Shown: piece after piece, positions 11,867 to 41,192 of the stretch
How the letters are laid out: each line of letters begins with the position of its first letter
Numbering within the stretch: position 1 is the first letter of the stretch
Position numbers and translations under genes: made by a program
Assembly (NCBI GenBank): GCA_945870855.1
Contig: CAMBTP010000011.1
Coordinates: 3,767 to 67,766 of the forward strand
From: Prosthecobacter debontii
Lineage (GTDB): Bacteria > Verrucomicrobiota > Verrucomicrobiia > Verrucomicrobiales > Akkermansiaceae
Length of the DNA: 64,000 nucleotides
Direction: 5' to 3'
The notes under the pieces: model-generated
Told to the model about the DNA's origin: nothing
Databases searched by the model: none
Seen by the model: only the letters and a program-made list of their open reading frames with translations

Positions 11867-11886
11867 TGTCATCGAATTGGGGACTA
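11867..11886 (+). promoter_or_regulatory. Dyad operator-like motif, copy 1 (tgtcatcgaattggggacta)
   Basis: One of six co-oriented copies of TGTC-NNC-N3-TTGRGGACT. Lies between the divergent kinase and sulfatase genes. Confidence 0.75.
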
Positions 11887-11913
11887 CGCAGATGCCACGG
11901 TTCTCAGCACATA

Positions 11914-13506
11914 ATGATTTGTAAAAATGAACTTTTTCACATGCCCTCCAAAGCCCTTAACGCCATTCGTTCCATCATCCACATCCTGCTCGTAGCACCT
12001 GCGCTCGCCGCCGTTACTCCCGTGCCCAAGGAAATCTTGCCCGAGCACGTAGCCGGCGCGAAGCCCCGCAGCGTCGTATTCATTCTCTCCGATGACCACC
12101 GCTTCGACGCGATGAGTTTCCTCGGCCACCAGTTCGCGGAAACGCCGGTGATGGATTCCATAGCCGCGAACGGTGCCTATTTGAAAAACGCGCTGGTCAC
12201 CACTTCGCTGTGCTCCCCCAGCCGCGCCTCCATCCTCACCGGCCTCTACACCTTCCGCCACCGTGTCATCGACAACAACCGAGCCATCCCGCCCGGCACG
12301 GTCTATTTCTCGCAGTATCTCCAGAAGGCCGGCTACTCCACCGGCTTCTTCGGGAAATGGCACATGGGCGGCGAAAGCGACGAGCCACAGCCTGGTTGGG
12401 ATCACTGGGTGAGCTTCCTCGGACAAGGTGAGTATCTACCACCCACGCCCGACTACACTCTCAACGTGGATGGAAAACGCGTGAAACAAAAAGGCTACAT
12501 CACCACGGAACTGACTGATTACGCCATCGACTGGCTGAAAAATCAGAAGCCGTCGGAGAAACCGTTCTGCATGTATCTCTCGCACAAGGCGGTGCATGCT
12601 AATTTCACCCCCGAGGAAAAATACGAGGACAGCTTCAAGGATCTCCCCTTCCTGCGCCCCGCTTCGGAAAAAACCACCGCCGCCGATCTCACCAAACCTC
12701 GCTGGCTACGCGACCAGCGCAACTCCTGGCACGGCGTCGATTTCCCCTACCACACAGACATGGACATAGAGCGCTACTACAAGCGCTACTGCGAGACCCT
12801 CCGCTCGGTGGACGACAGCATCGGCCGCGTTCTCCAGCAGCTCAAGGACATGGGTATTTACGAGGAAACGCTCGTCATCTACATGGGCGATAACGGCTTC
12901 ATGTTCGGCGAGCACGGCCTGATCGACAAACGCGTCGCCTACGAGACCTCAATGCGCGTGCCGATGCTCGTGCAGTGCCCAGAGATCATCAAAGGCGGCA
13001 CCGTCGTCGAGGAAATGATCGCCAATATCGACGTCGCCCCCACCATCATGGAGGCGATGTCCCTTAAGAAACCCGCGCACATGGATGGCGAAAGTTTCCT
13101 GCCGCTGGTGCAAGGCAAGACCATCCCGTGGCGCGAGCAGTTCCTTTACGTCTATTACTGGGAAAAAAATTTTCCGCAGACCCCGACCACCTTCGCCCTG
13201 CGCACGCCGAAAGGAAAATATATCACCTACTACGGCCTCTGGGACTCGGATGAATACTACGATCTCACCGCCGATCCCGATGAATCAAAAAACCTAATCC
13301 AGAATCCCGCGCACATCGCCGAGGCCAAGCAGATGGAGAACAAGCTTTACAAGATGATGAGCAGTCTCGGCGGCATGGAAATCCCGCTCAACCAACCCAC
13401 CGGAGGTTTCAACGACAAGCGCCTACAAGACAACGGCGGAGAGAAGGCCGCCGATTTCCCAGCATCAAAGGTCGTGGTCGAGCCGATCAACACCAACGCG
13501 AACTAA
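11914..13506 (+). CDS. Secreted type I (formylglycine-dependent) sulfatase
   Basis: SVVFILSDDH, CSPSRASILTG (CxPxR), GKWH, KAVH, GDNG, RVPM. Start may be 11941. Confidence 0.95.
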   Translation: MICKNELFHMPSKALNAIRSIIHILLVAPALAAVTPVPKEILPEHVAGAKPRSVVFILSDDHRFDAMSFLGHQFAETPVMDSIAANGAYLKNALVTTSLCSPSRASILTGLYTFRHRVIDNNRAIPPGTVYFSQYLQKAGYSTGFFGKWHMGGESDEPQPGWDHWVSFLGQGEYLPPTPDYTLNVDGKRVKQKGYITTELTDYAIDWLKNQKPSEKPFCMYLSHKAVHANFTPEEKYEDSFKDLPFLRPASEKTTAADLTKPRWLRDQRNSWHGVDFPYHTDMDIERYYKRYCETLRSVDDSIGRVLQQLKDMGIYEETLVIYMGDNGFMFGEHGLIDKRVAYETSMRVPMLVQCPEIIKGGTVVEEMIANIDVAPTIMEAMSLKKPAHMDGESFLPLVQGKTIPWREQFLYVYYWEKNFPQTPTTFALRTPKGKYITYYGLWDSDEYYDLTADPDESKNLIQNPAHIAEAKQMENKLYKMMSSLGGMEIPLNQPTGGFNDKRLQDNGGEKAADFPASKVVVEPINTNAN

Positions 13507-13580
13507 CCCATGGAAATGCAACGGGATCGCCCAGAACTCCCGCCACTTCCCACTGCTCACCGCAAAGCAAGTGCCAGCAT

Positions 13581-13600
13581 TGTCCGCCATTTGGGGACTA
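13581..13600 (+). promoter_or_regulatory. Dyad operator-like motif, copy 2 (tgtccgccatttggggacta)
   Basis: About 100 nt upstream of the pilin-like gene at 13698 and co-oriented with it. Confidence 0.7.
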
Positions 13601-13697
13601 TTGCGCTTCCGCTTCAGCTGGTTAACTTACTGGGTTCAAGTGAATTTCAAATACTCAGCTTTTATAGATCGATGAATTCATCGCCGGAACAAACCCA

Positions 13698-16600
13698 ATG
13701 AATATAAATATCTTCCGACCTACGAATGCAATGCTCCGCCTGACCGGCGCCCGTCGGGGCTTTGCCCTCGTCGTCACGCTTTCACTCATGATTCTGTTGA
13801 CGGTCGTAGCCATTGGCTTGCTATCCCTCTCATCCATCAGCCTTCGATCCAGTTCGATCTCCTCGGCTCAGCAAAAAGCACAAGCCAATGCCCGCTTGGC
13901 ACTGATGCTGGCACTCGGCGAACTGCAGAAGGAACTGGGACCTGACCAACGTATCTCCGTGCCCGGCTCGCAACTGCTCGCGGATACCGACATAACCGGC
14001 CCCAAGCACTGGACCGGCGTTTATGAATCATGGAAAGGTGCAAGCTGGCCCTTCGCGACCAGTGAGGAAATTCGCCCCGAGTCACCGACCTTCCGCCGTT
14101 GGCTAATTTCCGGCGATGAAACCATCGTCACAATGAAGGATACTCCCAAAGCCGGCCTGACCACGGGCGACAAGGTCAAGCTGGTGGCCGCCACCGAAGC
14201 GCAAGGCAGCATACCGGCGCAGGACGCGGTGGAGGCCGGGCTCGTCACGCTTCCGCAAGGCGGTATTGCCTGGTGGATCGGCGATCAGAACACGAAGGCG
14301 AAATTCGGCGGAGTCGTCGAGGATGCGGCAGATGCGAAAGTGGCCGCCGCCCGCCTGCAGTCCGCCCCGCGTGCGGCCCATGAGGTATTTTCGGGCTTGG
14401 ATGGCGTGCTTGCCAACGACGAGCGACTCGGGAAATTGCCATCCACTGACAGCCTGCGGTTGCTGGCCAAGGATACCGATTTTTTCCACGATGCCACCAC
14501 CACTTCGCTCGGCCTCATGACCAACGTGCGCGCCGGCGGCCTGCGTAAGGACTTGAATTTTCTGTTGGAGACGCCCATCCCTACCGCAGGCACCGCAGCA
14601 ACGGCTGCGCTCTACACTGCCGCCGGATCAAGCCCGGCCACTGTATCAGGCACGCCAATCCCATTCGAGGGCATCAATCTCGGCGAGCTATGGGTCGATC
14701 ACAACATCTGGGGGGAACTCCAGTATGGCCCGCCCAAACATGCCGATGGCTCTTCGCTCCCCTCCGGCGCTCCCTATCTTGAGTGCGGCGCCAAGGCTGA
14801 TCCTTTCCTCAATTACAAACACCTGCCCAGACTTCAGCTCACACAACTTTATTCGCTCACCAGCAAAAGCAGCACCGTCGCCGGCAAGAAAGTCTATGAT
14901 TTGTATCTTGCTACTGATCCGATTTTCACGATTTGGAACCCCTTCGATGTCTGCCTTCATGTTCCCCAGAGCTACTTCGCCACGCTCAAGACTTGGGCGA
15001 TCCCCTATGATTTGAATCTCACTTTGCAAGGCGGGCCGACGGGATTTAGGACATCTTACACCAGTTCTATCGGAGACATCTACAGAGTAGGGGGCACAGG
15101 GAATGCGGTATTTGTCTTCCAAGGCACTTTGGGCAATGTTAGCAAAACCAGCCAGAATCTTGTGCTGAGGCCCGGGGAAGTGCAGGTCATGGCACAAGGA
15201 TTTGGAGCGCCAATCAAATACAACCCGACAGGGGTTGATTGGGATTCCAAGCTCGGCTGGGAATTCGCCTCGGGTTATGCCTACAAGATAGATTACGAAC
15301 CCGGAGACACCACCGGCACAAAAAAGACCGGGGCACAGCGTATCACCTACTCGATGGCCCCCAATGCAAAGAAGAGCGACAACACCGCGCTCATGCTATG
15401 GAGTTATGGCGTCCCCGGCGCGAATCCCTATATTGGCAGCTTCAACATCAATTTCAGCAACTCGCGCCTTTCAGGCCAAGGGGAAATTACTGCTAACAGT
15501 TTCCCGACAATCTTCCCGAGCTTGCCTCTTGATGCCTCCGCATCAAAGACAATCGCCGAGTTGGAAAACAACAAGTGGCCGATCTGTGTGTTCACCTATG
15601 GTCTGCGGACCGAGTCGGACCCCTTTCTCACATCGGGAAAGCGTTCTACCGGCCGCTCCATGCTCCGGGCCAACGCAACTTCCCTTGGGCAAGACCTTTT
15701 CAACCTCGATCCCGCGGTGGTTCGCACCTCGCCACTCCAGGTGGGTATGCGGCGCGTGAATAGCCTCAGCGATCCGATCGTCGAGTGCGATGTGAAGGGC
15801 TTGGGTTATTATGGTGCAGGTTATAGTTCCAACGACGGAGTGTCCCACGTCGTCACCCGTTCGATTATGCGCGAGCCGATCCATTCACTCGGCGCCCTGC
15901 AACATGGCGCGGCTGAGGGGAAGAAATTCGGCCAAGCAGTGGGTGAGAAGACATGGTTCCTCCAACCTTCCGTCAGCCATGCCATCGCCAACTCGTTCGC
16001 GCCCTCCTTCCTCGGGCCCGACGCAGTGCGCGGCACGCTTGCCGGATGGCCTGCGGCGGATCATTCGTATCTGGCCAACCTCGCGCTATGGGATACCTAC
16101 TTTTATTCCTCGATCAAGCCGCGCACCAAATCGGCACACAAGAGCCCGAGTACGGCCTATTCCGAACAAAAGAGGCGACTTGAGGACTTCCTCGCCACAG
16201 ACACCGCTTACAAGCCCCTGCCCAACGAGCGCATGAGGCCTTGGGCCAGCGATCCCGCAAGCGATATCAAGGCCATTTTCCCGTCCACAACTCCCGACCC
16301 CAGCGCGGCCGATCGCACGGCTTCCTTGCTGATGGTCGACGGTATGTTCAATGTGAACTCCACCTCGGTGACGGCATGGAAGAGCTTCCTCTCGGGGCTC
16401 AAGAAGGCCAAGGTCCCGAGCAATCCCAGCCCCGGTCTTCTCTCCCAAGCCAAGATGGTCGACGCCCAAGGCACGGCGGTAGCCGCCCTGCTGGAAGCCG
16501 CAGGCGAGGAGATCGACGATACCACCCTCGGCGATCCGAGTGAGGCCGAGCAGTGGCGCGGTTTCCGCAGCCTCAGCAATGATCAAATCGATGAACTCGC

Positions 16601-17132
16601 CAAAGCGATTGTCAAACAGGTGCGCAAGCGCGGCCCCTTCCTCTCGATCGCCGATTTCGTGAACCGCCGCCCCGGTTCCAACAAGGAGCTTGCGGTATCC
16701 GGCGCCCTGCAAAGCGCGCTTGATGACAATGACGTTTCGATCAACGAGGCCTACCGTCAGGGAGATCGCTCTCTCAGCCTCGCGGAGGCCCAAGCGCAAG
16801 GTTTCCCATTCCCCGAGGCGGAAGCGGGCCCTAAAGCCATCGGCTCCCCCGGCTATGTGAAACAGGGCGACTTGCTCACCTCGCTTGGCCCGATGATTGC
16901 CGTGCGCGGCGACACCTTCGTGATCCGCGGCTACGGCGAGGCGCGCGAGGCCTCCGGCAAAATCGTGTTGGCCCGCTCCTGGTGTGAAGCCGTGGTCCAG
17001 CGCGTGCCCGACTACCTCGATCCCTCGGACAAGGCTTACGCCGCCGTTCCAACATCCCCGGTCAACCTAACCTTCGGCCGCCGCTTCAACATCGTTTCCT
17101 TCCGCTTCCTGAATCCCGAGGAAGTTCGCTGA
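13698..17132 (+). CDS. Giant prepilin-like (PilX/GspK-type) protein resembling Verru_Chthon cassette protein A
   Basis: Class III signal RRG|FALVVTLSLMILLTVVAIGLL, then AQANARLALMLALGELQKELGPDQR, and C-terminal RGPFLSIADFVNRR, GDTFVIRGYG, RSWCEAVVQR, FGRRFNIVSFRFL. Confidence 0.75.
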   Translation: MNINIFRPTNAMLRLTGARRGFALVVTLSLMILLTVVAIGLLSLSSISLRSSSISSAQQKAQANARLALMLALGELQKELGPDQRISVPGSQLLADTDITGPKHWTGVYESWKGASWPFATSEEIRPESPTFRRWLISGDETIVTMKDTPKAGLTTGDKVKLVAATEAQGSIPAQDAVEAGLVTLPQGGIAWWIGDQNTKAKFGGVVEDAADAKVAAARLQSAPRAAHEVFSGLDGVLANDERLGKLPSTDSLRLLAKDTDFFHDATTTSLGLMTNVRAGGLRKDLNFLLETPIPTAGTAATAALYTAAGSSPATVSGTPIPFEGINLGELWVDHNIWGELQYGPPKHADGSSLPSGAPYLECGAKADPFLNYKHLPRLQLTQLYSLTSKSSTVAGKKVYDLYLATDPIFTIWNPFDVCLHVPQSYFATLKTWAIPYDLNLTLQGGPTGFRTSYTSSIGDIYRVGGTGNAVFVFQGTLGNVSKTSQNLVLRPGEVQVMAQGFGAPIKYNPTGVDWDSKLGWEFASGYAYKIDYEPGDTTGTKKTGAQRITYSMAPNAKKSDNTALMLWSYGVPGANPYIGSFNINFSNSRLSGQGEITANSFPTIFPSLPLDASASKTIAELENNKWPICVFTYGLRTESDPFLTSGKRSTGRSMLRANATSLGQDLFNLDPAVVRTSPLQVGMRRVNSLSDPIVECDVKGLGYYGAGYSSNDGVSHVVTRSIMREPIHSLGALQHGAAEGKKFGQAVGEKTWFLQPSVSHAIANSFAPSFLGPDAVRGTLAGWPAADHSYLANLALWDTYFYSSIKPRTKSAHKSPSTAYSEQKRRLEDFLATDTAYKPLPNERMRPWASDPASDIKAIFPSTTPDPSAADRTASLLMVDGMFNVNSTSVTAWKSFLSGLKKAKVPSNPSPGLLSQAKMVDAQGTAVAALLEAAGEEIDDTTLGDPSEAEQWRGFRSLSNDQIDELAKAIVKQVRKRGPFLSIADFVNRRPGSNKELAVSGALQSALDDNDVSINEAYRQGDRSLSLAEAQAQGFPFPEAEAGPKAIGSPGYVKQGDLLTSLGPMIAVRGDTFVIRGYGEAREASGKIVLARSWCEAVVQRVPDYLDPSDKAYAAVPTSPVNLTFGRRFNIVSFRFLNPEEVR

Positions 17133-17168
17133 CGCCGGGCAAACCATCGCTGATTTCTTCAAAAAACC

Positions 17169-17852
17169 ATGCACCACTTCCTGTCCCACACCATGGTCGC
17201 CGCCGTGTTTCTCGCCGGAACCTTTGCCGCAGCCCAGCAGCCCTCTTCGCCGGGTGTTCGCGCCTTGTTGCTCGTCCCGGGCGGGCCGGTCACCACACTT
17301 TTCCCCTTATCCGGCGAGGTGGTCGGCCACGAAGTGCAGATCGGTGCGCGGGGTCTCAGCGAGTCATTCAAACCAAGCGCCCGCCAGTTTTCCCTCGCGG
17401 TGCGGGATGCCAAGCAAGAGTCCGGCTACCACCCCGTCGCCAAGGTTTTGCTGCCGTCGCAAGGCAGTGAATTCATCATCCTGTTGGAGCCCACAGGAGC
17501 CACCTACAAAGTCCACGTCGTCAATGGCAGGGAATCCCGCTTCGGCGCAGACTCCGTGCTGTTCTTCAATGCGGCGGAGATCACCCTAGCTGCTACTCTT
17601 GGCACGACCAAAGTGCTGATCAAACCGCGCGTGGCAGTGTTCGCCAAGGCACCGCAGCGCACAGAAAAATCCTTCTATCAGGTTACGTTTTATCAACCCG
17701 ATGATGGCAGGCCCCGTCCCTTTACAAACACCCGCTGGCCGCACCGGGACGGCAGCCGCTGCTATGTGTTCTTCTATCGAAATCAGACCTCTGGGCGCCT
17801 TACCTATCAGGCAGTTGACGAGGTGCTCGCGCCCGTGGCCGCCACCGAATAG
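17169..17852 (+). CDS. Hypothetical secreted protein, probable partner of the upstream pilin-like gene
   Basis: Signal peptide (MVAAVFLAGTFAAA), 37 nt after the upstream stop, same strand. Confidence 0.7.
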   Translation: MHHFLSHTMVAAVFLAGTFAAAQQPSSPGVRALLLVPGGPVTTLFPLSGEVVGHEVQIGARGLSESFKPSARQFSLAVRDAKQESGYHPVAKVLLPSQGSEFIILLEPTGATYKVHVVNGRESRFGADSVLFFNAAEITLAATLGTTKVLIKPRVAVFAKAPQRTEKSFYQVTFYQPDDGRPRPFTNTRWPHRDGSRCYVFFYRNQTSGRLTYQAVDEVLAPVAATE

Positions 17853-17972: not shown

Positions 17973-18584
17973 TTACATCCGCTTCACCCGGATGTTCTTG
18001 TAGCGGACAACGCTGCCGGGATCGTGCGCTTGAAGGGCGAAGGTGCCTTCTGCCAGCTTGCGGGTGAAAGGCTTGCCGGGCTGCGCGCCCTCAGGCTCGG
18101 TGTATTCGAGGACAATCTTGCCATCGATCAATACCGTCACCTTGCTGCCTTTGACGATGATCTCCTGCGTCCACCACTTCTTGTCCTGGGCAGGGGTGCT
18201 GCTGATGTTCGCGAGGCCATAGAGACTGCCGGTCTTGATCCAGTCTCCTTGAGTCACGTTCACCTGACACTCGAAGCCAATCTGCGGCCAATCCTTTTCC
18301 TGATAGGCGGTGTGAAAATAGATCCCACCGTTTGAGCTCGGCTCGGTCATCACCTCGACCTTGAGATGAAAGTTTTTGAACGGCTTGCCGTCACCCTCGT
18401 AAAACAGGTGGCAGCGCTCGCCCTTCGCGACGAAGGCTCCGTCTTCGATTTTCCACGTATCGATGTTCTCGGTAGCCATTTTCCAACCGTCGAAGGTCTT
18501 GCCGTCCATGAGAGGCACGAAGCCCTCTTCAGAGGCGATGGCGAACGAGGCGGAAAGGAACAGAATCGGGAGTAATGTCTTCAT
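17973..18584 (-). CDS. DUF1080 (3-keto-disaccharide hydrolase family) protein
   Basis: Signal peptide, LMDGKTFDGW, NGGIYF, ECQV, FALQAHDPGS.V.YKNI. Confidence 0.9.
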   Translation of the reverse strand: MKTLLPILFLSASFAIASEEGFVPLMDGKTFDGWKMATENIDTWKIEDGAFVAKGERCHLFYEGDGKPFKNFHLKVEVMTEPSSNGGIYFHTAYQEKDWPQIGFECQVNVTQGDWIKTGSLYGLANISSTPAQDKKWWTQEIIVKGSKVTVLIDGKIVLEYTEPEGAQPGKPFTRKLAEGTFALQAHDPGSVVRYKNIRVKRM

Positions 18585-18631
18585 AATTTGGTAAGATCGG
18601 AACCGAGCCTAGTGCGGCAACCGAGAATGAC

Positions 18632-18651
18632 CAGTCCCCAATTCGGCGACA
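18632..18651 (-). promoter_or_regulatory. Dyad operator-like motif, copy 3 (tgtcgccgaattggggactg on the minus strand)
   Basis: About 48 nt upstream of the DUF1080 ATG and co-oriented. Confidence 0.72.
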
Positions 18652-18750: not shown

Positions 18751-18758
18751 CTCTCCGG

Positions 18759-20084: not shown

Positions 20085-20149
20085 GGGAACCTTGCCTTCC
20101 GTGCGTTTTAAACAATACCCAACATTTATCATTCAATCGCCGAAAAACA

Positions 20150-20169
20150 AAGTCCCCAAAACGACGACA
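20150..20169 (-). promoter_or_regulatory. Dyad operator-like motif, copy 4 (tgtcgtcgttttggggactt on the minus strand)
   Basis: About 66 nt upstream of the GH71/99-like ATG and co-oriented. Confidence 0.72.
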
Positions 20170-20235
20170 TACATCCCGGAATTGCAGAGCTTGCCTAAGC
20201 AGATTTCCAAACATCCCAGCGCGGGAAATTTTTCA

Positions 20236-20501: not shown

Positions 20502-22778
<2,277 letters not shown>

Positions 22779-32109: not shown

Positions 32110-35100
32110 ATGAACATCAAATCCCTTCTTTTCATCTGCGTCTTACCCGCTCTGGCCGCAAAGGCGGATGTCAGCACGAGCTTTGCCAACACTGGCCCTG
32201 TGACCACCGGGACTTTTCTCACGGCAGCGATCAACGATACCATCACCCTCGCCTACACCATCGACGGAGCCGGGGCGGTTTCACTAAATGCCTCCACCAC
32301 CAACGCCAACGCCACCTTCATCAATCTGGTCAACCAGTTCGACCGGCTAAGCGGCATGGCGGGCACCACGACCAACAGTGATCTCTTTAACACCTCGTTT
32401 AGCCTCAAAATCGTGCCGGTGAGATCGTCGAGCCCGAACCTGAGTATCACCACTCTCAATGGCGGCGGCCTCGGCGTGCAGGGACAGGATTCGAACCGCT
32501 TGGACGGGCGGACGCTGCCAACAAGTGCCCCAGAGACACTTAAATTCGAACTGACCGCGCCGGCAGGGATGATTCTGCAGTTTAAATCTTGGTCATGGGT
32601 GAGCGGTTTCGGAGCAGACATGCGCTTTTCCGACGGTACGAACCTTCAGGATTTTGCCAACTTGGCGGCGTCGGGTAGCACCGCATTCAGCCTCGTGACC
32701 AATGTGCTCAGCCTGGGCAACGGTGACACTCTCTCCTTTGGCGAAACCCCGGATTCCACCAGCGGAGCGGGCCTCGGTGGGTTCACCTTCGACATCCTTA
32801 GTCCCCCGCTGACTGCCAACGACGCGGTCGTGAGCTTCGCAAACAGCGGGATCGGTTTCGGGCCGACTCCTCCCTACATTCTCTCGGGCAGCAACACTGC
32901 GCCAATTACCCTGACCTTTTCCATCAATGGCTCCGGTGTAATTTCTCTCAACGCTTCCACTACCAGCAGCGTCACCACTTTTATCAACATGGTAAACGAG
33001 TGGGATAGCAGCAATGTCGGATCAGTGGAGAATCCCTCATGGCTAAATACATCCTTCACCCTCACCGGCATCGGATCAGGTGGAGCAAACCTCGCCATCA
33101 CCGAGCTTGGCGGCGGCGGCATCGGCATTCAGGGCGAAAATACGAACCGCGTCGATGGTCTGAACTACGGCACGGGTGGCGCGACATCCACCCCGGAAAT
33201 CCTGACTTGGACACTCAGCGGTGCGCCTGCCGGTATGGCGCTCACCTTTAAAAACTGGTCCTATATCGAGGGCAACGGCTCAGACATCCGAATCTCAAAT
33301 GGAACGACGAATGCCGACTTTGCCAACATGTCTGGTGCGATGGGAACGCTGAGCCTCCCTGCTGACTTTCCGCTCAACAATGGCGAATCCCTCACCTTCA
33401 AAGAAATTCCCGGAATGGGGCTAACAGACGGCGCGGGCATTGCCGGCTTTAGCTTCGCGGTGGTTGCGCCTTCAGCGCCCGCAGGATTTGACAACGGCGC
33501 GGGCAATAACCTGTGGACCAACGCCACCAACTGGAGCCCCAATGGCATACCCGCCGCCCCCACAGATGCGATCATCAATAGCTACGACGTGATCCTCAGC
33601 AGCGCAGCATCCACCAGCCCGGACGAACTCCTGATCACCAACGGATCGCTCACCGTGACCGGCACAGGAGCACTATCGATGCGCGCCATGACCCTTGGCC
33701 GCGACCTCACTAAAACAGTCCGCCTCGTGATCAATGGCTCGAGCGTATCCCTCGGCTACAACGGATCATCCGCCGCCGACGAGTTCGCGGTGGGTTCTGC
33801 CGCGACTGTGGAAACCAAGCCAGATTCGGGCGGCAGCGAGCCGCTCGAACTAGGCACCGCCAAGCTGGTCCTCGATCTCGGCGCGCAGTGGCTTCTCGAT
33901 GGTGCTAATTTCACCGGCCCCTACAACATCGGCGACCGTTTCGTGCTGGCAAACTTCGGATCACTCTCCGGCAGCACGGCGGCCATGCGCACCCGAAATT
34001 TCGACCTGCCTTCCACCCGTCGGCTCGAATTGGTCGCCACCGCCACATCCATCTACTACGAGGTGAAGGCTCAGACCGCAGCCAGCGGTCCGAATATTAT
34101 CATCATCAATACCGACGACCAGGCCGCCGACCAGCACTACGGCTTTGATGGCAGGAATTGCATTACACCGACGCTGGACTTACTCGTTTCCACCGGTCTG
34201 AAATTCAACTTGGCATTCTGCGCCGCGTCCGTATGTGGCGCCTCACGCTATTCGCTTCTCACCAGTCGTTGGCCCTCGCGCAATACCAGCGACACCTTCA
34301 TCGCTCGCTACCCGCTTGGAACACTCGGCCGCTTCGGCGTGTCGGACACCGAGCTAGAGCATGACGGCCAAAACATCGGCGCATGGCTGCAGCAGGCAGG
34401 CTACCGCACCGGTTTTGTCGGGAAATCCCACGTGCTCGATGACGAGTTGAACTTTACCACCAATTGGGCATCCAAGGGACTCATCACCTACGGCCAGACG
34501 GACGATCCGGCCACCAATGCCACGGTCAACGCGGCCATGCAGCACAACCACCGCATCGTCTGCCAAAACATGCGCACGCTTGGATACGATTATGTCGACG
34601 GCTTCTACCACGCCAACCTCAAGGAACTCTACAATGATAAGCTGAACGTCCACAACCAGGAGTGGATCACCAGCCGCGCCCTGAAATTCATCGAGGAAAA
34701 CCGCAATGAGCGATTCTTCCTCTACATGGCACCCACCATCAACCACGGGCCGGTTAACAATACGCTCACCACCGACCTAAACTCAGATTCACGCTACACC
34801 AGCGCCGGATTTCTGCCCAACGAGGACTACTCGTTCATGCCCACGCGCTCATCGATCATCAATCAGGTGAATGCCGCCAACAAGCCCCTGATCTCCGCCC
34901 GCGAGACATGGCTCGACTACTCGGTCCAGGCCATCCTCAACAAGCTCACCGCCTACGGCATCCGCAACGACACGCTGATCATCTTCACCTCCGACCACGG
35001 TGAGAAGAATTCGCCCAACAGCATCACCTCAAGCACGATTTGGGGCAAAACCTCGCTCTACGATCTGGGACTGAAGGTGCCGCTGGTGATGAATTGGCCC

Positions 35101-36342
35101 AATGGCATCACTTCTCCCGGTCGCGCCTATAATGAATTGGTCAGTCATGTGGATATCGGGTCAACACTGCTCGCGCTCGCCGGAGTCTCCAACCTACCGA
35201 CCCGTCCGGTGGATGGCGTTAGCCTAGTGCCGGTTTTCAACGGCAGCAGCGCGGCGGTGCGGAGCGAGGTCTTCGGCGAGATGGGCTACGCCCGCGGCGT
35301 GCGCACCAAGACCCGCAAATACATCGCGGTTCGCTACACCCCATCGATTTACTCCCAAATCGCGAGTGGTTACCGATGGCCGGAATACAATGAAAGTTCG
35401 CAACTAACAGGCGGGACGATCCCACGACCCTATTACATCAACAACAGCGGTCTCGGAGCGGGTGTCGCTACAACCAACCCGACCTATTTCGACGACGACC
35501 AGCTCTACAACTTGACCACCGATCCGAACGAAAATACCAACATCTACGGTCAAGAGCCCGCCACAGCTTACGAGCTCAAGAAAATCCTCGCCAGCTACAT
35601 CGGCGGAATTCCCAACCGCCCGTTCAGACAGTTCGGTGATTCCTCTGCGGAGTTCTCTCCCGCACCTTCCGCCGCGCCGACTGCCCCCGGCTCGGTGCAG
35701 ATGACCTTTAATAATCTCAATCAGGTGATGCTCAACTGGTCCGATTCCGCCAACAGCGAACTCGGATATGTGATCCGCAAGACCGTCAACAGCGGCACGC
35801 CCGTGGTTGTTGGTGAATATCCTCCCGGGACCACCACCGCCACCGTGAACCTTGATAACGGCGTCTCAGACATTCTGCTCCAGGTGGCAAGCTACAACAC
35901 GCAGGGCGACACCGCGGTCACTCAGGACTTACTTGCCCCCGAACCATGGCGCTACCGCACCTTCGGCGGCAGCGATCCCAACCTCACAGGGCCCGCCAGC
36001 CAGTGGAACAACGATGCCGATAGCGATGGCGTCTCCACCCTGTGGGAATACGCCGCCGGCACCGACCCGCTTTCGACCACATCGGTTGCCAAACCCGCGA
36101 TGCGGATGACGACCGACATGGGCCATCGCTTCTTGGAATACGTCTTGCCGCGCAGCAGCCGCCGTGGTGTGCAATTCCGCGGCTCGGTTAGCACGAACTT
36201 AACAACCTGGCAGAGCGGATCGCCGCATTGCACCGTCGTCGAGGAAGCGGCCAACCAAATGATCTTCCGCAGTGCGGCACCTGTCAGCGGAACTCCCCAC
36301 CAGTTTATCCGTGTCGAAATGATCGATCCGTCCGGGCAGTGA
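32110..36342 (+). CDS. Large secreted multidomain sulfatase (two tandem beta-rich repeats, beta-helix-like segment, sulfatase, FN3-like, C-terminal D-rich domain)
   Basis: Signal MNIKSLLFICVLPALAAKA. Sulfatase motifs PNIIIINTDD, CGASR, GKSH, FTSDHG, KVPL. FN3-like LNWSDSANSELGYVI. C-terminal DADSDGVSTLWEYAAGTDP...FIRVE. Start placed at 32110. Confidence 0.9.
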   Translation: MNIKSLLFICVLPALAAKADVSTSFANTGPVTTGTFLTAAINDTITLAYTIDGAGAVSLNASTTNANATFINLVNQFDRLSGMAGTTTNSDLFNTSFSLKIVPVRSSSPNLSITTLNGGGLGVQGQDSNRLDGRTLPTSAPETLKFELTAPAGMILQFKSWSWVSGFGADMRFSDGTNLQDFANLAASGSTAFSLVTNVLSLGNGDTLSFGETPDSTSGAGLGGFTFDILSPPLTANDAVVSFANSGIGFGPTPPYILSGSNTAPITLTFSINGSGVISLNASTTSSVTTFINMVNEWDSSNVGSVENPSWLNTSFTLTGIGSGGANLAITELGGGGIGIQGENTNRVDGLNYGTGGATSTPEILTWTLSGAPAGMALTFKNWSYIEGNGSDIRISNGTTNADFANMSGAMGTLSLPADFPLNNGESLTFKEIPGMGLTDGAGIAGFSFAVVAPSAPAGFDNGAGNNLWTNATNWSPNGIPAAPTDAIINSYDVILSSAASTSPDELLITNGSLTVTGTGALSMRAMTLGRDLTKTVRLVINGSSVSLGYNGSSAADEFAVGSAATVETKPDSGGSEPLELGTAKLVLDLGAQWLLDGANFTGPYNIGDRFVLANFGSLSGSTAAMRTRNFDLPSTRRLELVATATSIYYEVKAQTAASGPNIIIINTDDQAADQHYGFDGRNCITPTLDLLVSTGLKFNLAFCAASVCGASRYSLLTSRWPSRNTSDTFIARYPLGTLGRFGVSDTELEHDGQNIGAWLQQAGYRTGFVGKSHVLDDELNFTTNWASKGLITYGQTDDPATNATVNAAMQHNHRIVCQNMRTLGYDYVDGFYHANLKELYNDKLNVHNQEWITSRALKFIEENRNERFFLYMAPTINHGPVNNTLTTDLNSDSRYTSAGFLPNEDYSFMPTRSSIINQVNAANKPLISARETWLDYSVQAILNKLTAYGIRNDTLIIFTSDHGEKNSPNSITSSTIWGKTSLYDLGLKVPLVMNWPNGITSPGRAYNELVSHVDIGSTLLALAGVSNLPTRPVDGVSLVPVFNGSSAAVRSEVFGEMGYARGVRTKTRKYIAVRYTPSIYSQIASGYRWPEYNESSQLTGGTIPRPYYINNSGLGAGVATTNPTYFDDDQLYNLTTDPNENTNIYGQEPATAYELKKILASYIGGIPNRPFRQFGDSSAEFSPAPSAAPTAPGSVQMTFNNLNQVMLNWSDSANSELGYVIRKTVNSGTPVVVGEYPPGTTTATVNLDNGVSDILLQVASYNTQGDTAVTQDLLAPEPWRYRTFGGSDPNLTGPASQWNNDADSDGVSTLWEYAAGTDPLSTTSVAKPAMRMTTDMGHRFLEYVLPRSSRRGVQFRGSVSTNLTTWQSGSPHCTVVEEAANQMIFRSAAPVSGTPHQFIRVEMIDPSGQ

Positions 36343-37139: not shown

Positions 37140-40100
37140 TCAGTTCGACAGGACCTTGAGGCGTAGGAAATTCTTCGCCGGGGTGCCTGGGGTGAGGGTG
37201 AACGAGATGGTGGTCGCGTCGTTGACATAGGATCCGCCGGTGACCTCGATCCATGGATCGGTGGTGCCGAGGTCGGTGGATTTCTGGATCGCGTAGGTGA
37301 GCCCGTTGGTGCCTGTCCGTTTGGTGTAGCTGAGGACGTTGGTGGCGAAGGTGCCCACCGCTGCGTTTGCCACTGTCGGGTCTTGGCCGGCGATGGCGTA
37401 TTCCAACAAGTTGCTGATGCCGTCGTTGTCAGGGTCGTCATTGGCACCTTGTTCAAGGGCTGGCACTGTGCCATTGGCGAAGGTGCCGGTGATCCACGAG
37501 GAGTAGCCAGCAGGGCCGGAACTTACGGTCAGGGTGCCGTCGCCAGTGATCTGGGAGATACCGATGACAGGTAAAGCCGAACCGACTTTTCCATACACGC
37601 CGTTCGCTTGTTGGGTGCTACCGATGTAGAGCTCGTCCACGGTGTCGGTGCCGACGTAGGTGAGGTTCAGCGTTGCTCCGCTCGCGGCGAGGGTGACGGT
37701 GGAAACGTCGTTGCCGGTGTTGGAATTGTTCGAGATCCGCACGATGCCTGCATTGACCGTGAGGTTACCGGCGTAGGTGTTCGCGCCGCTGAGATCCAGA
37801 CGAGAGGTCGCACTGTTTTGGGTGATGCCGGTGACGTTCGATCCGATCGAGGCACTGATGAGGGTGTCACCCGTTGCGGACCCTTGCACGGTGATGCTGC
37901 CGGTGTGGTTGACAGCGGTGGTGGTGAGCTCGATTGCGTTTGCGGCAAGACCCAGATTGTCGAGCAGCAGGTTACCAGTGCCGGTGATACCACCAGTGAA
38001 GTAAGATCTGGCGGTGGTCGCCCCGCTGATGACGTTGTTGTAAGACTGTAAGGTCAGGTTGCCATTTAAGGTGATTCCCCCCGACATGAAAAAGCCGGAG
38101 CCGCTGCCGTTTGCACCGATCGTCAACGTGCCACTGTCAGGAGCATTGATGACGAATGGATTCGAGTTATCCTGTCCAGTGATGTAGGTAGCCCCCGTCG
38201 AACCGACGCCGCCCATGATGACCGTGTTCGCGCCCAGCGTGGTCTTGGTGGTCCTGCTTTCCAGTGTACCATTTTTGATGGTGACTCCTCCTACGAACGT
38301 GTTCGCACCGCTAAGAGCCAGCGTGCCTGCTCCGGTTTTGACTAGACTACCGCCGCTGCCGCTTAGGATTCCCGACAAGGTGGCGATGCCCGGGGCTCCG
38401 ACACCACCGCCGACTTGGACGGTCAGCGCGCCAGTTAAAGCGGTGGGGGTGGAAAGGGAGAACGCCGCCGTGGCCACATCGTCATTGTTGAAAATGACGG
38501 TACCAGGGATTGGCAGGGTGACATTGCTGACGGTCGCCGCCTGGCGCACCGACAGGTTCGAGCCTGAGGCGAGCGTGATGCTTTGAGCGAAGGTGGGAGT
38601 GCCGCTGGCGTTCAAGACTAAGGAGGCTCCGTTGCTGACCGTCACCGCAGTATTGGGAGACAACGCGGCGCTGCCATTGATAAACAGGCGGTTTTGGCTG
38701 ATGGTCGTGCCTCCGCTGTAGGTGTTAGTTCCGCTCAGGATGACGTCCGTGTCACCAGTCTTGGTCAAGGCCAGCGTGCCGCCGGTGTTCTTGATATTGC
38801 CAGTGGAAGTGCCGCCAACGATGGCTCCCAAGGTCAAGGTGGAGGTGGTGGAAGCCGCGGTGTTATCCACCGAGCCCGTGCCGCTAAACCCATTGAGCGT
38901 TTCCGAATTGCCGTTGAGGTCGAGGGTGCCACTGATACTGAGAGTGCCCGCGCCGACGCCATCCGGCAGCACGTTGGAAGTGCCGAGCTTAAGCGTGGCA
39001 GCAGACGTCACAGTGATCGGTGCAGTACCGGCAATCTTGTTGGTGCCTTGCAACGTGTAGACCCCGCTGATGAATAGGACCGACTGCGGTGTCACATCCG
39101 CTCCCGTGATGTCCACGGTTTTGTTCGTGGCGGAGCTATCGAAGACCACCTTGACGTCGTTCACGTAATCAACCGAATTGCCATCCAGAATCCAGTTTTT
39201 TGACGGGGTGATGATGGCCGTACTCCACTCGCTGCTTTGCGCGCCGGTCCAGTAGTAACCGTCCGCGACAACCACCAGTTGAATGGCGCTGCCGGTGTCG
39301 ATCAGGGAGTAGGATTTGCCTGCGGGCGTGGTGCCGAGGGTGTAAGCGCTGAAACCGCTGCCCCCCAGGGTTCCGCTGTAGGAAATGAGCGAGTAGGTGC
39401 CGTTAGCAGGTGCGCTGCCGGTGATGTTGATGGCGATGGAACCGGCCGCGCCGCTGTTGATCACGCCGCTGGAGGTGCTTACCGTCAGACCCGTGCCGCC
39501 GCTTGCGAGGTCAAAATTCAGCGTGCCGGTGCTAGTAAAAGTGAGAGTCTTCACCGTGCTTGGGGTGGTGGTCAGCGAGAGCGAGGCCCCGTCGGCGAGG
39601 GTGAGCGAACTGGAAGTGCTCACGGCATTGGCATTGCCGAGAACCAAGACACCTGCATTGACGGCGGTGGCACCCGTGAAGGTGTTGACTCCGGAAAGGG
39701 TTAGAGTGCCCGCCCCGGTCTTGGTGAGCGTGCCCGCACCGCTGTCATCGGAGAGAATACCGGAGAGGGTGATGTTTTTGGCGGCGGCGGCGCTGGTAGC
39801 TGCTTGGATTGTGGTGCCGGCGCCCAGGCTCATGTTGAGCGAGGACGACCAGGCGTCGGATGCACCAAGAGTGCCGCCTTGCAGCTTGATCGCGACTGGG
39901 AGTGTGGTGGCGTCGGTGCCGCGGGTGATCCCTTGGAGGCCAATGTAAAGGCTGCCGCCGCTGAGGGTCAAATTCGCCGCTGAGGTGGCGTTATAGGTGG
40001 TAGCACCCGTGGAACCTCCGAACTGGATGCCGTTGGCGGTCACCGTGCCGGCGGACTGGGTCATGGCGGCGGTGAAGCCCGAGTTCGCCCCGGCCTTGTA

Positions 40101-41042
40101 GAAGTAAATCTTGTTGGCGGTGCTGCCGGTGCCAACCGTGACCGTGCCACCCGTCACATTAAGCGTGCCGTTGGATGCGGTGGTATTTCCGATGCGAATC
40201 TCGCCGGAACGGCTGGCGGTGGTGCCGGCGTTCACGATGCCGGTCCCACTCACATTCAAGGAGGATATGAAGGCGCCGGTCCCGTTTCCGATGCCCAAGT
40301 GGGCGTTGTTGACGGTGGTCGTCGTGTTGTTGCCGCTCACACTCAGGGTGCCGGCGGAAAGGTTATAAGCGACGTTTTGGGTGGTGCTGTTGATGTTGTA
40401 ACCGATAGCGTTTCCTGGCGTGATATTAAAGGTGCCGCCAGTTTGATTTAGGGTTGCGGCTTGCATGGCACCGGTGTTGGCGGAGTATGTCCCTGCGGTC
40501 ATGTTGACCGCGCCAAGGCCTGAAAAGGTGTATTGGGAATTGGTCGCACCGCCGCCGAGGTTGAGCGTGGAGCCCGCGTTCACCGTGATGGCAGCGGCTG
40601 CATTGTTGGCGTACGCAATGGCGGAATTGATGGTGGCGGTCTTGCCAGCGGCGACGGTGATGGCACCGCTAAGGGCAGTCGTCGGCATGATGGCCAGCGT
40701 GCTGCCGGTGATTTGGTAGCCGCTGTTGTTGAAAGTGATGGATTCGGCGGCCATTTGCGCAGCGAGCGTGATGACATACTGATTAGGCGAGCCGTCTGTG
40801 CCGGCAAAAGTGGCGGTGTTGCTGCCGTCGGTGGCTGAGGTTTGGCTCCAAATCACATTCGAGGTGCCGTTGTTCCAGACCGTGTTTCCTGCGGTCGTGT
40901 TCCAGTTACCGCTGGCCGCGGTGATGGCGGCTCCGTCGCCTGATGTCGTATCCCAAGTGAGGGCGGCGGCGAAGGCCGAGGGCGCGGCGAGCAATAGCGA
41001 GATAGCGGCGACTAGGAATGGATTTTGATTCTTGGATTTCAT
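37140..41042 (-). CDS. Secreted autotransporter-associated beta-strand repeat protein with no beta-barrel
   Basis: Signal peptide. Repeated LTKTGAGTLTLSGxNTxxGxTxVxxGxL units. C-terminal DDPDNDGISNLLEYAIAGQDP...YAIQKSTDL...W...FLRLKV. Start placed at 41042. Confidence 0.92.
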   Translation of the reverse strand: MKSKNQNPFLVAAISLLLAAPSAFAAALTWDTTSGDGAAITAASGNWNTTAGNTVWNNGTSNVIWSQTSATDGSNTATFAGTDGSPNQYVITLAAQMAAESITFNNSGYQITGSTLAIMPTTALSGAITVAAGKTATINSAIAYANNAAAAITVNAGSTLNLGGGATNSQYTFSGLGAVNMTAGTYSANTGAMQAATLNQTGGTFNITPGNAIGYNINSTTQNVAYNLSAGTLSVSGNNTTTTVNNAHLGIGNGTGAFISSLNVSGTGIVNAGTTASRSGEIRIGNTTASNGTLNVTGGTVTVGTGSTANKIYFYKAGANSGFTAAMTQSAGTVTANGIQFGGSTGATTYNATSAANLTLSGGSLYIGLQGITRGTDATTLPVAIKLQGGTLGASDAWSSSLNMSLGAGTTIQAATSAAAAKNITLSGILSDDSGAGTLTKTGAGTLTLSGVNTFTGATAVNAGVLVLGNANAVSTSSSLTLADGASLSLTTTPSTVKTLTFTSTGTLNFDLASGGTGLTVSTSSGVINSGAAGSIAINITGSAPANGTYSLISYSGTLGGSGFSAYTLGTTPAGKSYSLIDTGSAIQLVVVADGYYWTGAQSSEWSTAIITPSKNWILDGNSVDYVNDVKVVFDSSATNKTVDITGADVTPQSVLFISGVYTLQGTNKIAGTAPITVTSAATLKLGTSNVLPDGVGAGTLSISGTLDLNGNSETLNGFSGTGSVDNTAASTTSTLTLGAIVGGTSTGNIKNTGGTLALTKTGDTDVILSGTNTYSGGTTISQNRLFINGSAALSPNTAVTVSNGASLVLNASGTPTFAQSITLASGSNLSVRQAATVSNVTLPIPGTVIFNNDDVATAAFSLSTPTALTGALTVQVGGGVGAPGIATLSGILSGSGGSLVKTGAGTLALSGANTFVGGVTIKNGTLESRTTKTTLGANTVIMGGVGSTGATYITGQDNSNPFVINAPDSGTLTIGANGSGSGFFMSGGITLNGNLTLQSYNNVISGATTARSYFTGGITGTGNLLLDNLGLAANAIELTTTAVNHTGSITVQGSATGDTLISASIGSNVTGITQNSATSRLDLSGANTYAGNLTVNAGIVRISNNSNTGNDVSTVTLAASGATLNLTYVGTDTVDELYIGSTQQANGVYGKVGSALPVIGISQITGDGTLTVSSGPAGYSSWITGTFANGTVPALEQGANDDPDNDGISNLLEYAIAGQDPTVANAAVGTFATNVLSYTKRTGTNGLTYAIQKSTDLGTTDPWIEVTGGSYVNDATTISFTLTPGTPAKNFLRLKVLSN

Positions 41043-41172
41043 GGGTGTTTTTTGTCTTGGGGTTTTTGATCTGAGGGTTTTTTTGGAGCAACCTTGAGCG
41101 ACTCGCATCTAGTCTTACGGCTGAATGCGTGTAATATCGTGTTGAGAATCGCATAGAATGCAGAAGGGATCA

Positions 41173-41192
41173 TAGTCCTCAAAGTGATGACA
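41173..41192 (-). promoter_or_regulatory. Dyad operator-like motif, copy 6 (tgtcatcactttgaggacta on the minus strand)
   Basis: About 130 nt upstream of the autotransporter-repeat gene and co-oriented. Confidence 0.75.

Follow-up and report, generated by a model that had tools for sequence, protein, structure and literature searches.

The 20-bp element that recurs in the stretch of DNA analysed here (referred to below as the window, 64,000 nt in its full length) is quite probably, judging from sequence comparison, the operator on which the adjacent two-component system acts, and as such would form a fixed part of activator-dependent promoters of the sigma-70 type. The dyad within it would most likely be the binding site of the adjacent response regulator, by which the promoters of secreted sulfatase, GH99-like and surface protein genes would be switched on. 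The evidence that dyad and regulator define a regulon is strong, and the regulon would be one of a conventional kind, involving no new regulatory principle.

The repeated element and the genes it precedes

With at most one mismatch allowed, the window contains precisely six instances of the pattern TGTCNNCNNNTTGRGGACT, against an expectation of 0.04, and six copies were reached in none of 100 dinucleotide shuffles of the window. When the whole 2.98-Mb assembly (that of a freshwater Verrucomicrobium) is scanned with the strict pattern there are again six copies, all of them in the window, and a seventh site, with one mismatch, lies on another contig (C4:73472), where the promoter is that of a GMC oxidoreductase together with its small subunit. 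Scanning with a position weight matrix (PWM) trained only on sites from relatives, in a variation on a search suggested in the preliminary description, gave scores of 19.6–37.5 bits for the six copies in the window and 17.8 bits for C4:73472, with everything else in the genome at or below 13.3 bits.

The positions and strands first given for the copies (11867+, 13581+, 18651-, 20169-, 32013+ and 41192-) proved exact, as did their sequences and the description of the core as a dyad, GTCNNC-N5-GRGGAC, that is perfect in copy 5. Each of the six lies between real genes and is aimed at the next gene (sites 1, 4 and 5 overlap just mechanical ORFs or over-extended 5' ends), and the claim that all copies are intergenic and co-oriented thus holds for 6/6. 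Two other statements need correction: the separation from the next gene, put at 28–130 nt, becomes roughly 47–130 nt when measured from the likely true start codons (11941, 13698, 18584, 20084, 32110, and 41042 or 41108), each of which leads into an N-terminus resembling a signal peptide or a prepilin, and to call the regulon dispersed or non-clustered overstates matters for this genome, given that 6/7 sites fall within 30 kb of the regulator. In three close relatives (G001, G015 and G021) these genes are gathered in a single compact cluster, and sites lie megabases apart only in some large genomes. The predicted leaders are A/C-rich and lack an obvious Shine-Dalgarno sequence.

Site 1 (TGTCATCGAATTGGGGACTA, 11867–11886, plus strand; 29.0 bits with the relatives' PWM) precedes the gene for a secreted sulfatase with Sulfatase and SGSH_C domains (11941–13506, plus strand; listed ORF start 11914) and is divergent from the kinase–regulator operon; its predicted -10 box, CATAAT (11910–11915, plus strand), would place the transcription start site (TSS) near 11922, if the family-wide fixed spacing applies, and an orthologue of the site is retained in G021 (L017:9941). 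Adjoining the site there is also a perfect TATAAT on the minus strand, at 11856–11861. Site 2 (TGTCCGCCATTTGGGGACTA, 13581–13600, plus strand; predicted -10 TAACTT, 13623–13628) stands before a pseudopilin-like gene, encoding a 1144-aa protein with a prepilin/GspK-like N-terminus, and a 227-aa ORF (17169–17852); these two targets (together 13698–17852, plus strand) probably share a single transcript, and synteny of the two is preserved in G001 and G007. On the minus strand, site 3 (TGTCGCCGAATTGGGGACTG, 18632–18651; predicted -10 TAGGCT, 18606–18611), which shares an identical 19-mer with its orthologue in G021 (L017:12237), precedes the gene for a protein of the DUF1080 or 3-keto-disaccharide hydrolase family with a signal peptide (17973–18584, minus strand), and site 4 (TGTCGTCGTTTTGGGGACTT, 20150–20169, minus strand; predicted extended -10 TGaTAAATG, 20123–20131) precedes a core target, the gene for a GH99-like (beta/alpha)8 glycosidase (18759–20084, minus strand), whose orthologue has a site in front of it in 19 loci. 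Site 5 (TGTCCTCGCTTTGAGGACTA, 32013–32032, plus strand; a perfect 6+6 dyad scoring 37.5 bits, with a predicted -10 of TACCCT at 32053–32058) lies before the gene for a 1410-aa multidomain secreted sulfatase (32110–36342, plus strand), and site 6 (TGTCATCACTTTGAGGACTA, 41173–41192, minus strand; 35.9 bits, with a weak predicted -10, GATTCT, at 41145–41150) before that for a 1322-aa PATR (autotransporter-repeat) surface protein (37140–41108, minus strand; start probably 41042). Within the window, the predicted -10 boxes are poor at sites 4 and 6.

The GH99-like protein encoded at 18759–20084 has both the (beta/alpha)8 fold of the GH99 endo-alpha-mannosidases and mannanases (Foldseek E 2e-11 and TM 0.6–0.69 against GH99 structures) and the two catalytic Glu of their NEWHEG motif, kept here as FDEVDEG; in a profile alignment its FDEVDEGT falls on the FNEWHEGT of BtGH99. 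With an identity of only about 15% and a Pfam score just at threshold, it is to be regarded as a distant GH99 relative.

Promoter geometry

When 78–81 dereplicated sites from across the genomes are compared, the sole conserved positions outside 0–20 are an A at +42 and a T at +46. The combination A-N3-T is found with its A at +41, +42, +43 and +44 in 18, 36, 15 and 11 cases respectively, where the background per offset is 3.9 ± 2.0, and in the same set of sites there is no mirrored -10-like signal on the TGTC side. Nor is any -35-like hexamer conserved at +18 to +23 in this set, for which reason the promoters look activator-dependent. Since a sigma-70-type A-N3-T with its A 41–44 nt past the motif start puts the centre of the dyad near -44 relative to the inferred TSS, at the location of a -35 box, the geometry would be that of a LuxR-type class II activator, the sites of which are centred around -41 to -45. 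The promoter would then consist of two half-sites, GTCNNC (distal) and GRGGAC (proximal), with a 5-bp spacer between them that ends in TTT, then TA, a further 21–24 bp or so, and a -10 box of the form TAnnnT.

Orientation can be checked independently on the perfect palindromes, which are themselves strand-neutral; among these the -10-like side is the T-tract side in 23/23 informative cases. There are in addition 19 back-to-back gene pairs, separated by gaps of 12–107 bp, in which each gene has its own site, as would follow from a requirement of every promoter for a site in fixed position. The strict co-orientation would thus be a consequence of the site being fixed within the promoter, with the T-tract and ACTA promoter-proximal and the -10 some 22 nt beyond; it is not inherent to a dimer operator as such.

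The kinase–regulator pair, its orthologues and alternative readings

The proposed site binder (9524–10162, minus strand) has the receiver domain with phospho-acceptor Asp and the C-terminal GerE/LuxR-type helix-turn-helix (HTH) by which NarL/FixJ-family response regulators are recognised (Pfam Response_reg, 9e-25, residues 10–122; GerE, 3e-16, residues 155–208), and its sequence contains the DD and D (IMDINLPG) motifs. Its nearest solved relatives are VraR (5e-34), NarL (1e-33) and DevR (3c3w; 3e-29), the match being full-length in all three cases, and also DesR. Encoded 13 nt upstream, and likewise to be expected for this family, is a sensor histidine kinase of the HisKA_3 type (10176–11816, minus strand; HisKA_3 2.6e-08, HATPase_c 3.4e-09), with transmembrane segments at residues 17–37 and 311–333 enclosing a periplasmic part of about residues 38–310 that includes a Y_Y_Y domain; an AlphaFold model of this part (pLDDT 89.7) is all-beta, with 18 strands and no helix. 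In the mechanism that we propose, the periplasm-facing kinase would sense an extracytoplasmic cue, probably a glycan or one of its breakdown products, and would phosphorylate the regulator, as is general in such families; a regulator dimer on the dyad near -44 would then, if the geometry is a guide, recruit RNA polymerase in a class II-like manner. The promoters served would be seven, namely those of the sulfatase, the pseudopilin-like gene with the 227-aa ORF, the DUF1080 gene, the GH99-like gene, the giant sulfatase, the PATR gene and, on C4, the GMC oxidoreductase.

Orthologues of the kinase–regulator pair adjoin motif clusters in some 30 Akkermansiaceae or Luteolibacter-like genomes, and the two genes are syntenic in every relative examined. 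Regulator orthologues of 61–95% identity lie with the kinase beside such clusters in G001, G007, G008, G015 (at two loci) and G021; of 38 further orthologue loci about 28 have sites (67 sites in 568 kb), and at three non-orthologous loci that were examined there are none. Among 41 relatives, the canonical motif is present in seven genomes, and these are the same seven that encode an orthologue at 65% identity or above; among 201 genomes of the family 16 have both regulator and motif, 176 have neither, four have the regulator only and five the motif only (Fisher p = 5e-16). The five motif-only genomes hold just one or two sites each, with the regulator undetected, and the other four have a regulator and no strict site, one of them (G205, the same as L031) nevertheless carrying sites with GTGGAC; mismatches of both kinds are probably due to assembly gaps and motif variants. 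Sites are also retained where their flanks have diverged, leaving a phylogenetic footprint (for instance between the window and G021).

A further correlation involves the recognition helix, TVRTYVKRIC-KLHVRSKVEAI, which is invariant among the regulator orthologues, and the residue just before it, which varies and aligns with a Lys of VraR and LiaR. Where this residue is Glu, 27/33 sites are the perfect dyad GTCCCC-N5-GGGGAC; where it is Pro or Ala, T occupies position 5 in 40/46 sites and position 13 can be A, G or T, so that Pro or Ala appears to go with a relaxed distal half. Phylogenetically, this co-variation comes down essentially to one split or two, and is suggestive without being statistically independent. 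Taken together, synteny, co-occurrence, residue co-variation and -10 spacing agree in supporting the original suggestion that the HisKA_3/NarL pair beside copy 1 is the likely controller.

The two features that suggest activation in preference to repression are the position of the site and the absent -35 box, and it is conceivable, if rather unlikely, that the dyad is an operator of this same regulator acting as a repressor or in some other mode (anti-repression, for example) and not as a class II activator. NarL-family regulators can repress, the site overlaps the -35 region, which is a position that repressors also use, and the minus-strand TATAAT (11856–11861) by site 1 suggests that the promoter of the kinase–regulator operon could be occluded by the same site. 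However, the lack of a conserved -35-like hexamer at +18 to +23 makes the promoters look activator-dependent, and strict phasing with the -10, together with a separate site for each divergent promoter, is typical of activators that contact RNA polymerase. Distinctly less probable is that the element belongs to some other transcription factor, with its gene elsewhere, or to an alternative sigma factor (ECF type) as its promoter, the pair then being a mere neighbour or a target. GGGAC(T) does superficially resemble ECF -35 boxes (GGAAC), but the gap of 23 bp between GGGGAC and the -10-like element is too long for a -35/-10 pair, the -10 is TAnnnT as for sigma-70, and the window ORFs that were scanned include no gene for a sigma or anti-sigma factor; moreover, the presence of the motif tracks the regulator orthologue from genome to genome, and its variant tracks the residue at the recognition helix.

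Two readings that dispense with a bound regulator fare worse. That the dyad is an RNA or DNA hairpin (a 5'-UTR stem-loop, say, or an attenuator or transcript-stabilising element) seems very improbable: sites of the Glu clade can fold into a perfect 6-bp stem with a 5-nt loop, and in the window copies the T at position 5 pairs with the A or G at position 13, but position 4 is mispaired in 4/6 of these copies, GTGGAC variants are combined with GTCCTC or GTCGTC with no compensation, there is no Rfam match, and the -10 signal downstream of the motif would leave the motif outside the transcript that it controls. REP elements, which are linked to Y1 transposases, are imperfect palindromes lying between genes, and site 5 does abut a gene for an IS200-like Y1 transposase (Y1_Tnp; 30669–31943), yet the idea that the copies are REP-like or mobile palindromes spread by this enzyme can scarcely be entertained, given that there are only seven copies in the genome and not the many of a REP/RAYT system, that sites are kept at orthologous promoters across genera in fixed phase to the -10, and that no motif locus of a relative contains a counterpart of the transposase, whereas the regulator is always present there.

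Wider reading and comparison with known systems

To our knowledge almost nothing is known about the control of the many sulfatases and glycosidases encoded by Verrucomicrobiota, a phylum for which we know of no SusC/D and HTCS logic such as Bacteroidota possess. The present proposal offers a concrete model of regulator, operator and promoter for Akkermansiaceae and Luteolibacter-like genera, with about 100 predicted sites and a core regulon of GH99-like, sulfatase, pseudopilin-like, PATR, GMC oxidoreductase and DUF1080 proteins, along with a candidate transporter of MFS/FucP-like type, so named on its N-terminal sequence alone. With the operator in hand, membership of the regulon could be read directly from MAGs; a cultured species, Luteolibacter marinus NBU1238, is available for study of the system, and the predicted promoter layout, with no -35 and a TAnnnT -10, enlarges what little is known about promoters of the phylum.

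A more speculative joint reading, which we hold only tentatively, combines three suggestions. The regulator family may bind DosR-like half-sites in everted arrangement, which, if true, would imply a dimer geometry on DNA unlike that of solved NarL-family complexes. A single change from Glu to Pro or Ala, at the residue that caps the recognition helix N-terminally, may have relaxed recognition at positions 4–5 and 13, with the half nearer the promoter left strong and the distal one weak; if so, this would be a natural, datable case of regulator–operator co-evolution. Lastly, the all-beta Y_Y_Y domain of about 270 aa may be a minimal sensor for a sulfated, alpha-linked (mannan-like?) polymer, the attack on which may involve the sulfatases, the GH99-like enzyme and, with DUF1080, a glucoside-3-dehydrogenase-like oxidoreductase.

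Among the closest known systems is that of LuxR/TraR class II activation at the lux box, which is a 20-bp dyad centred at -42.5 (PMC3376562), compared with about -44 here, as calculated from inferred TSSs. Both have a 20-bp dyad that is conserved in both arms, and that replaces the -35 box and is bound by a dimer with a GerE/LuxR-type HTH (the last two being predictions in the present case). However, the regulator here would be a phosphorylation-controlled response regulator and not an acyl-homoserine-lactone receptor, the half-site sequence differs, and the T-tract and ACTA make the site directional, unlike the lux box.

The Dev box of DosR/DevR from Mycobacterium tuberculosis (TTSGGGACTWWAGTCCCSAA) is likewise a 20-bp palindrome, and its regulator likewise a NarL-family response regulator. 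The proximal half here, TTGGGGACT, is a letter-for-letter instance of the DosR half-site TTSGGGACT (PMC2275270), from which it follows that NarL-family regulators can read such a sequence. In the Dev box the ACT ends meet centrally, whereas in GTCCCC-N5-GGGGAC it is the TT(T) ends that are central, across a 5-bp spacer, with ACT outside; the element is thus everted and not a Dev box, and AGTCCC after GGGGACTA is absent from all copies in the window. The biology also differs, DosR responding to hypoxia and the present system probably serving glycan use. The base contacts of DosR are, we take it, made by Lys179, Lys182 and Asn183, for which the regulator here has Ala/Pro/Glu, Arg and Thr, so that the resemblance between half-sites may be coincidental. 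NarL/NarP, with its 7-2-7 heptamer arrangement, and VraR/LiaR share with the present system inverted repeats bound by dimers after phosphorylation (again predicted here), but their recognition sequences, spacing and regulons (nitrate respiration and cell-envelope stress) are different.

As for the hybrid two-component systems (HTCS) of Bacteroides, these are single fused proteins with large beta-propellers and an AraC-type output domain; here, in contrast, there is a separate 546-aa kinase with a periplasmic domain of only about 270 aa, all-beta, and a NarL-type regulator. With kinase and regulator separate, GerE in place of AraC, and no SusC/SusD family member among the 30 window ORFs scanned, the locus is not a Bacteroidetes-type PUL with an HTCS. 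What it does have in common with HTCS loci is a periplasmic sensor containing Y_Y_Y, encoded beside the glycan-degrading genes that it would control, and the placing of secreted glycosidases and sulfatases under the local control of one sensor.

Motif copies and their target genes

A search of the window with the pattern TGTCNNCNNNTTGRGGACT, allowing at most one mismatch, returns exactly six matches, at 11867 (+), 13581 (+), 18651 (-), 20169 (-), 32013 (+) and 41192 (-), against a chance expectation of 0.04 and with more than one match in none of 100 dinucleotide shuffles. The six 20-mers prove to have the letters and places quoted in the preliminary description, and it was also right that all of them lie between real genes and point at the next one, the ORFs that the sites overlap (11884-12426, 20133-20462 and the 5' end of 31789-36342) being mechanical only. 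The true starts of the targets are probably 11941, 13698, 18584, 20084, 32110 and either 41042 or 41108, and the N-terminus read from each of them resembles that of a signal peptide or a prepilin.

According to Pfam and NCBIfam, which were used for the product assignments, the targets are a sulfatase (11914/11941-13506, +), a 1144-aa protein whose only recognisable part is a GspK/Verru_Chthon-A-like prepilin N-terminus (13698-17132, +; a 227-aa ORF lies at 17169-17852, +), a DUF1080 protein of the 3-keto-disaccharide hydrolase family (17973-18584, -), a distant GH99-like enzyme (18759-20084, -), a giant sulfatase (32110-36342, +) and a PATR-repeat protein (37140-41108, -). A block of housekeeping genes interrupts the series at 20502-30515 (monomeric IDH, a 3-hydroxyisobutyrate-dehydrogenase-like protein, a YgfZ/GCV_T-like protein, a fumarate-reductase/aspartate-oxidase-like flavoprotein, an RseP-like M50 protease and RecG); as had been claimed, these intervening genes carry no site in the window, and since each regulated gene retains its own site despite the split, the promoters appear to travel with the genes. 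Immediately upstream of the site at 32013 lies a gene (30669-31943, -) whose 424-aa product contains two IS200-like stretches (Y1_Tnp); it may mark a rearrangement by which the giant sulfatase became detached from the other cluster genes.

The two-component system next to the first site consists of a NarL-type response regulator (Response_reg and GerE; 9524-10162, -) and a histidine kinase (Y_Y_Y, HisKA_3 and HATPase_c; 10176-11816, -). At 4829-9514 (-) follow a PSCyt1/PSCyt2/PSD1 protein of 1043 aa, which starts 9 nt past the regulator stop, and then a DUF1501 protein; all four genes are co-directional and may form one operon. In the relative G021 the same pair also comes after the regulator, past an inserted prepilin-like gene that has a site to itself. 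Elsewhere in the window are a Ser/Thr protein kinase of 827 aa with a C-type lectin domain (2039-4522, -) and a 1504-aa protein in which DUF7133 and HEAT repeats are combined with a cytochrome c domain at the C-terminus (50464-54978, -).

In the whole assembly (2.98 Mb in 91 contigs, the window being positions 3767-67766 of contig C11) the strict motif occurs only at the six window places. A PWM built from the six scores them at 26.7-31.2 bits and nothing else in the genome above 19.3 bits, while a second, trained only on 44 sites of relatives with this genome left out, gives the six 19.6-37.5 bits, then 17.8 bits for one place on another contig (C4:73472) and 13.3 bits for the next match. The C4 sequence, TGTCGCCATAATGGGGACT at 73472-73490 (+), stands 56 nt upstream of a gene for a GMC oxidoreductase (594 aa), itself followed by a Gluconate_2-dh3 small subunit with a TAT-like signal, and the place predicted for its -10 reads TAGATT; in the relatives G021 and G015 the orthologous oxidoreductase gene is site-bearing and within the cluster, the pair being divergent from the GH99-like gene. 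From these sequence comparisons C4:73472 is taken to be a true seventh member, and the predicted regulon of this genome to comprise seven promoters. Six of these lie within 32 kb of the regulator, so that the word "dispersed", applied to the regulon in the preliminary description, does not suit this genome. One further near-palindrome, TGTCCCCACCTTGAGGACA at C5:37518-37536, lies inside a 1294-aa ORF, scores low with the PWM and lacks a -10, and is probably a chance match.

Probable position of the dyad within the promoter

When 81 non-redundant sites are aligned with their flanks, the information content is close to zero except in the motif itself (0-20), at an A at +42 from the motif start (44/81) and at a T at +46 (57/81). 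The combination A-N3-T with its A at +41, +42, +43 or +44 is found in 18, 36, 15 and 11 of 78 sites respectively, compared with a background per offset of 3.9 +/- 2.0 (at most 14). TAnnnT, counted in a 5-nt window, reaches a peak of 30, its background being 1.9. This fixed-distance signal is best read as the -10 hexamer of a sigma-70-type promoter, its A at -11 and its T at -7; the TSS would then fall near +53, and the site would span about -53 to -34 with its dyad centred near -44. The 81 aligned sites show no conserved -35-like hexamer at +18 to +23, and on the TGTC side the mirrored position is likewise without conservation.

To check the orientation independently of the pattern's own direction, the loci of one regulator clade (the Glu clade, described below) were searched with the palindromic core alone; 23 cases were informative, and in every one the -10-like signal and the spacer T-tract lay on one and the same side. 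Where two genes are divergent, each has a site to itself, the two standing back to back, in 19 pairs with gaps of 12-107 bp. Six of the seven sites of this genome have A-N3-T at +41 to +44, the boxes of those at 20169 and 41192 being weak. A cruder test, the presence of an ORF within 330 nt downstream, does not discriminate (92/101 sites on the motif side against 65/101 on the other); it is uninformative because of the many divergent intergenic regions and the long spurious ORFs of GC-rich DNA, and was replaced by the -10 phasing and T-tract tests.

The dyad would then be an operator built into activator-dependent promoters, and being a built-in part would account for its strict co-orientation, for which a symmetric operator alone is insufficient. 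That the same regulator should instead act at this dyad as a repressor is considered rather improbable.

Two observations on neighbouring sequence may be added. A perfect TATAAT on the minus strand (11856-11861) is found 6 nt away from the first site, at its TGTC end, and about 40 nt before the kinase start at 11816; if it were the promoter of the kinase and regulator, the regulator site would cover its -35 and spacer, and autoregulation is possible, but this box is not conserved in G021. In the leaders of many target genes, as at 41042-41110 and in three loci of relatives (L013, L014 and L018), A/C-rich runs such as CCAAGACAAAACCC immediately precede the ATG, an obvious Shine-Dalgarno sequence being absent, and the encoded N-termini often begin with MK(T/S)KN.

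Pairing of regulator and motif across genomes

With a looser pattern, in which the C at position 7 is not fixed, clustered matches are found in 9 of 41 relatives, and orthologues of the regulator (65-95% identity) and kinase (43-82%) lie inside or beside each cluster with one exception, an 8.5-kb contig that ends at the sites. Gene calls in the relatives are mechanical. The relative G001 has an unbroken cluster of the regulator and kinase genes together with those for the GH99-like enzyme, the giant sulfatase, the pseudopilin-like protein and the 227-aa partner of the latter, whereas here housekeeping blocks lie between them. A search for the regulator in the 41 genomes finds seven with a copy at 66-100% identity (remaining matches are at most 48%), and the canonical motif is present in these seven and in no others of the 41 (Fisher p = 4e-8). 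Of 201 family genomes that form a second and independent sample, 16 have both, 4 the regulator only, 5 the motif only and 176 neither (p = 5e-16); one of those counted as regulator only (G205) does have sites, of the GTGGAC form, which escape the strict pattern. Scanned with the regulator, GTDB genomes yielded 38 orthologue loci with 67 sites (at most one mismatch) in 568 kb, under the names Akkermansiaceae, Luteolibacter, Haloferula, Roseibacillus, one Rariglobus and the cultured Luteolibacter marinus NBU1238, while the same pattern search found no site in three non-orthologous regulator loci. The mechanism first proposed, in which the adjacent kinase and regulator act through the dyad, is supported and sharpened by this comparison of genomes. 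In two complete family genomes of 6.4-6.6 Mb (G097 and G206) perfect sites are 0.15-2.7 Mb apart, and in each genome one of them lies no more than 300 bp from the gene for the regulator, so that in large genomes, unlike this one, the regulon is truly dispersed.

The recognition-helix region, TVRTYVKRIC-KLHVRSKVEAI, is invariant among orthologues of 61-100% overall identity, and it is matched in the sites by a GTC/GAC and GG core that does not vary either. Orthologues at 60-75% identity have Glu just before this region, and 27 of their 33 sites are perfect dyads (GTCCCC-N5-GGGGAC); those at 80-100%, that of the window included, have Pro or Ala, with T at position 5 in 40 of 46 sites, position 4 free and A, G or T at position 13. 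The residue aligns with a Lys of VraR and LiaR, and likewise with Lys179 of DosR, taken here as a residue that contacts bases. Since it amounts to essentially one or two evolutionary events, this split is suggestive of regulator-site pairing, and suggestive only.

The type of -10, the spacing and the co-occurrence of regulator and motif make it unlikely that another factor or an ECF sigma lies behind the motif; it is on the spacing that the ECF reading is rejected. As a sigma-54 promoter (TGGCAC-N5-TTGC) the motif would, judged by eye, lack the invariant GG and GC and be one off in spacing. An RNA hairpin is excluded by uncompensated stem mismatches and by the position of the motif upstream of the inferred TSS, and the window gave no Rfam match at gathering thresholds. 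Spread as a REP/RAYT element from the Y1 transposase at 30669-31943 is rejected on copy number and on the absence of the transposase from all motif loci of the relatives.

Likely function and comparison with known systems

Clustering of the genes downstream of 92 sites shows the recurrent targets to be sulfatase/PATR multidomain proteins (21 sites), the GH99-like gene (19), small prepilin-like proteins (7), the giant pseudopilin-like protein, the GMC oxidoreductase and a 480-aa membrane protein that is MFS/FucP-like by its N-terminal sequence only (4 each), and DUF1080 (3). The structure model of the GH99-like protein has a confident barrel core, and its best matches are GH99 endo-alpha-mannosidases/mannanases (E 2e-11, TM at most 0.69), with GH71 next. 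A profile alignment places FDEVDEGT on FNEWHEGT of BtGH99, so that both Glu are kept; variants E333Q and E336Q are named in the PDB titles of the matched structures. The GMC oxidoreductase pair together with DUF1080 would suggest a glycoside-3-oxidation route. In the kinase, the periplasmic domain of about 270 aa between two TM segments is modelled as all-beta (pLDDT 89.7), probably as two beta-sandwiches; the fold search gives weak adhesin/CBM-like beta-sandwich matches only (TM <0.25), from which no ligand can be inferred. As a reasonable guess, and no more, the substrate and inducer would be a secreted, sulfated and possibly alpha-linked glycan.

DevR is among the closest solved homologues of the regulator. 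The proximal half of the dyad, TTGGGGACT, is moreover an instance of the DosR half-site in TTSGGGACTWWAGTCCCSAA (PMC2275270). The residues taken as the base contacts of DosR differ in the window regulator, however, and the half-sites here are everted, unlike those of the Dev box; the operator is therefore no Dev box, and this likeness serves only as a lead. No description of this regulator-operator system was found in the literature searched. The predicted geometry agrees with class II activation of the LuxR type, in which the lux box, likewise a 20-bp dyad, is centred at -42.5 (PMC3376562) as against about -44 from the inferred TSS here. The system would be new and well delimited, the kind of regulation itself being already known.
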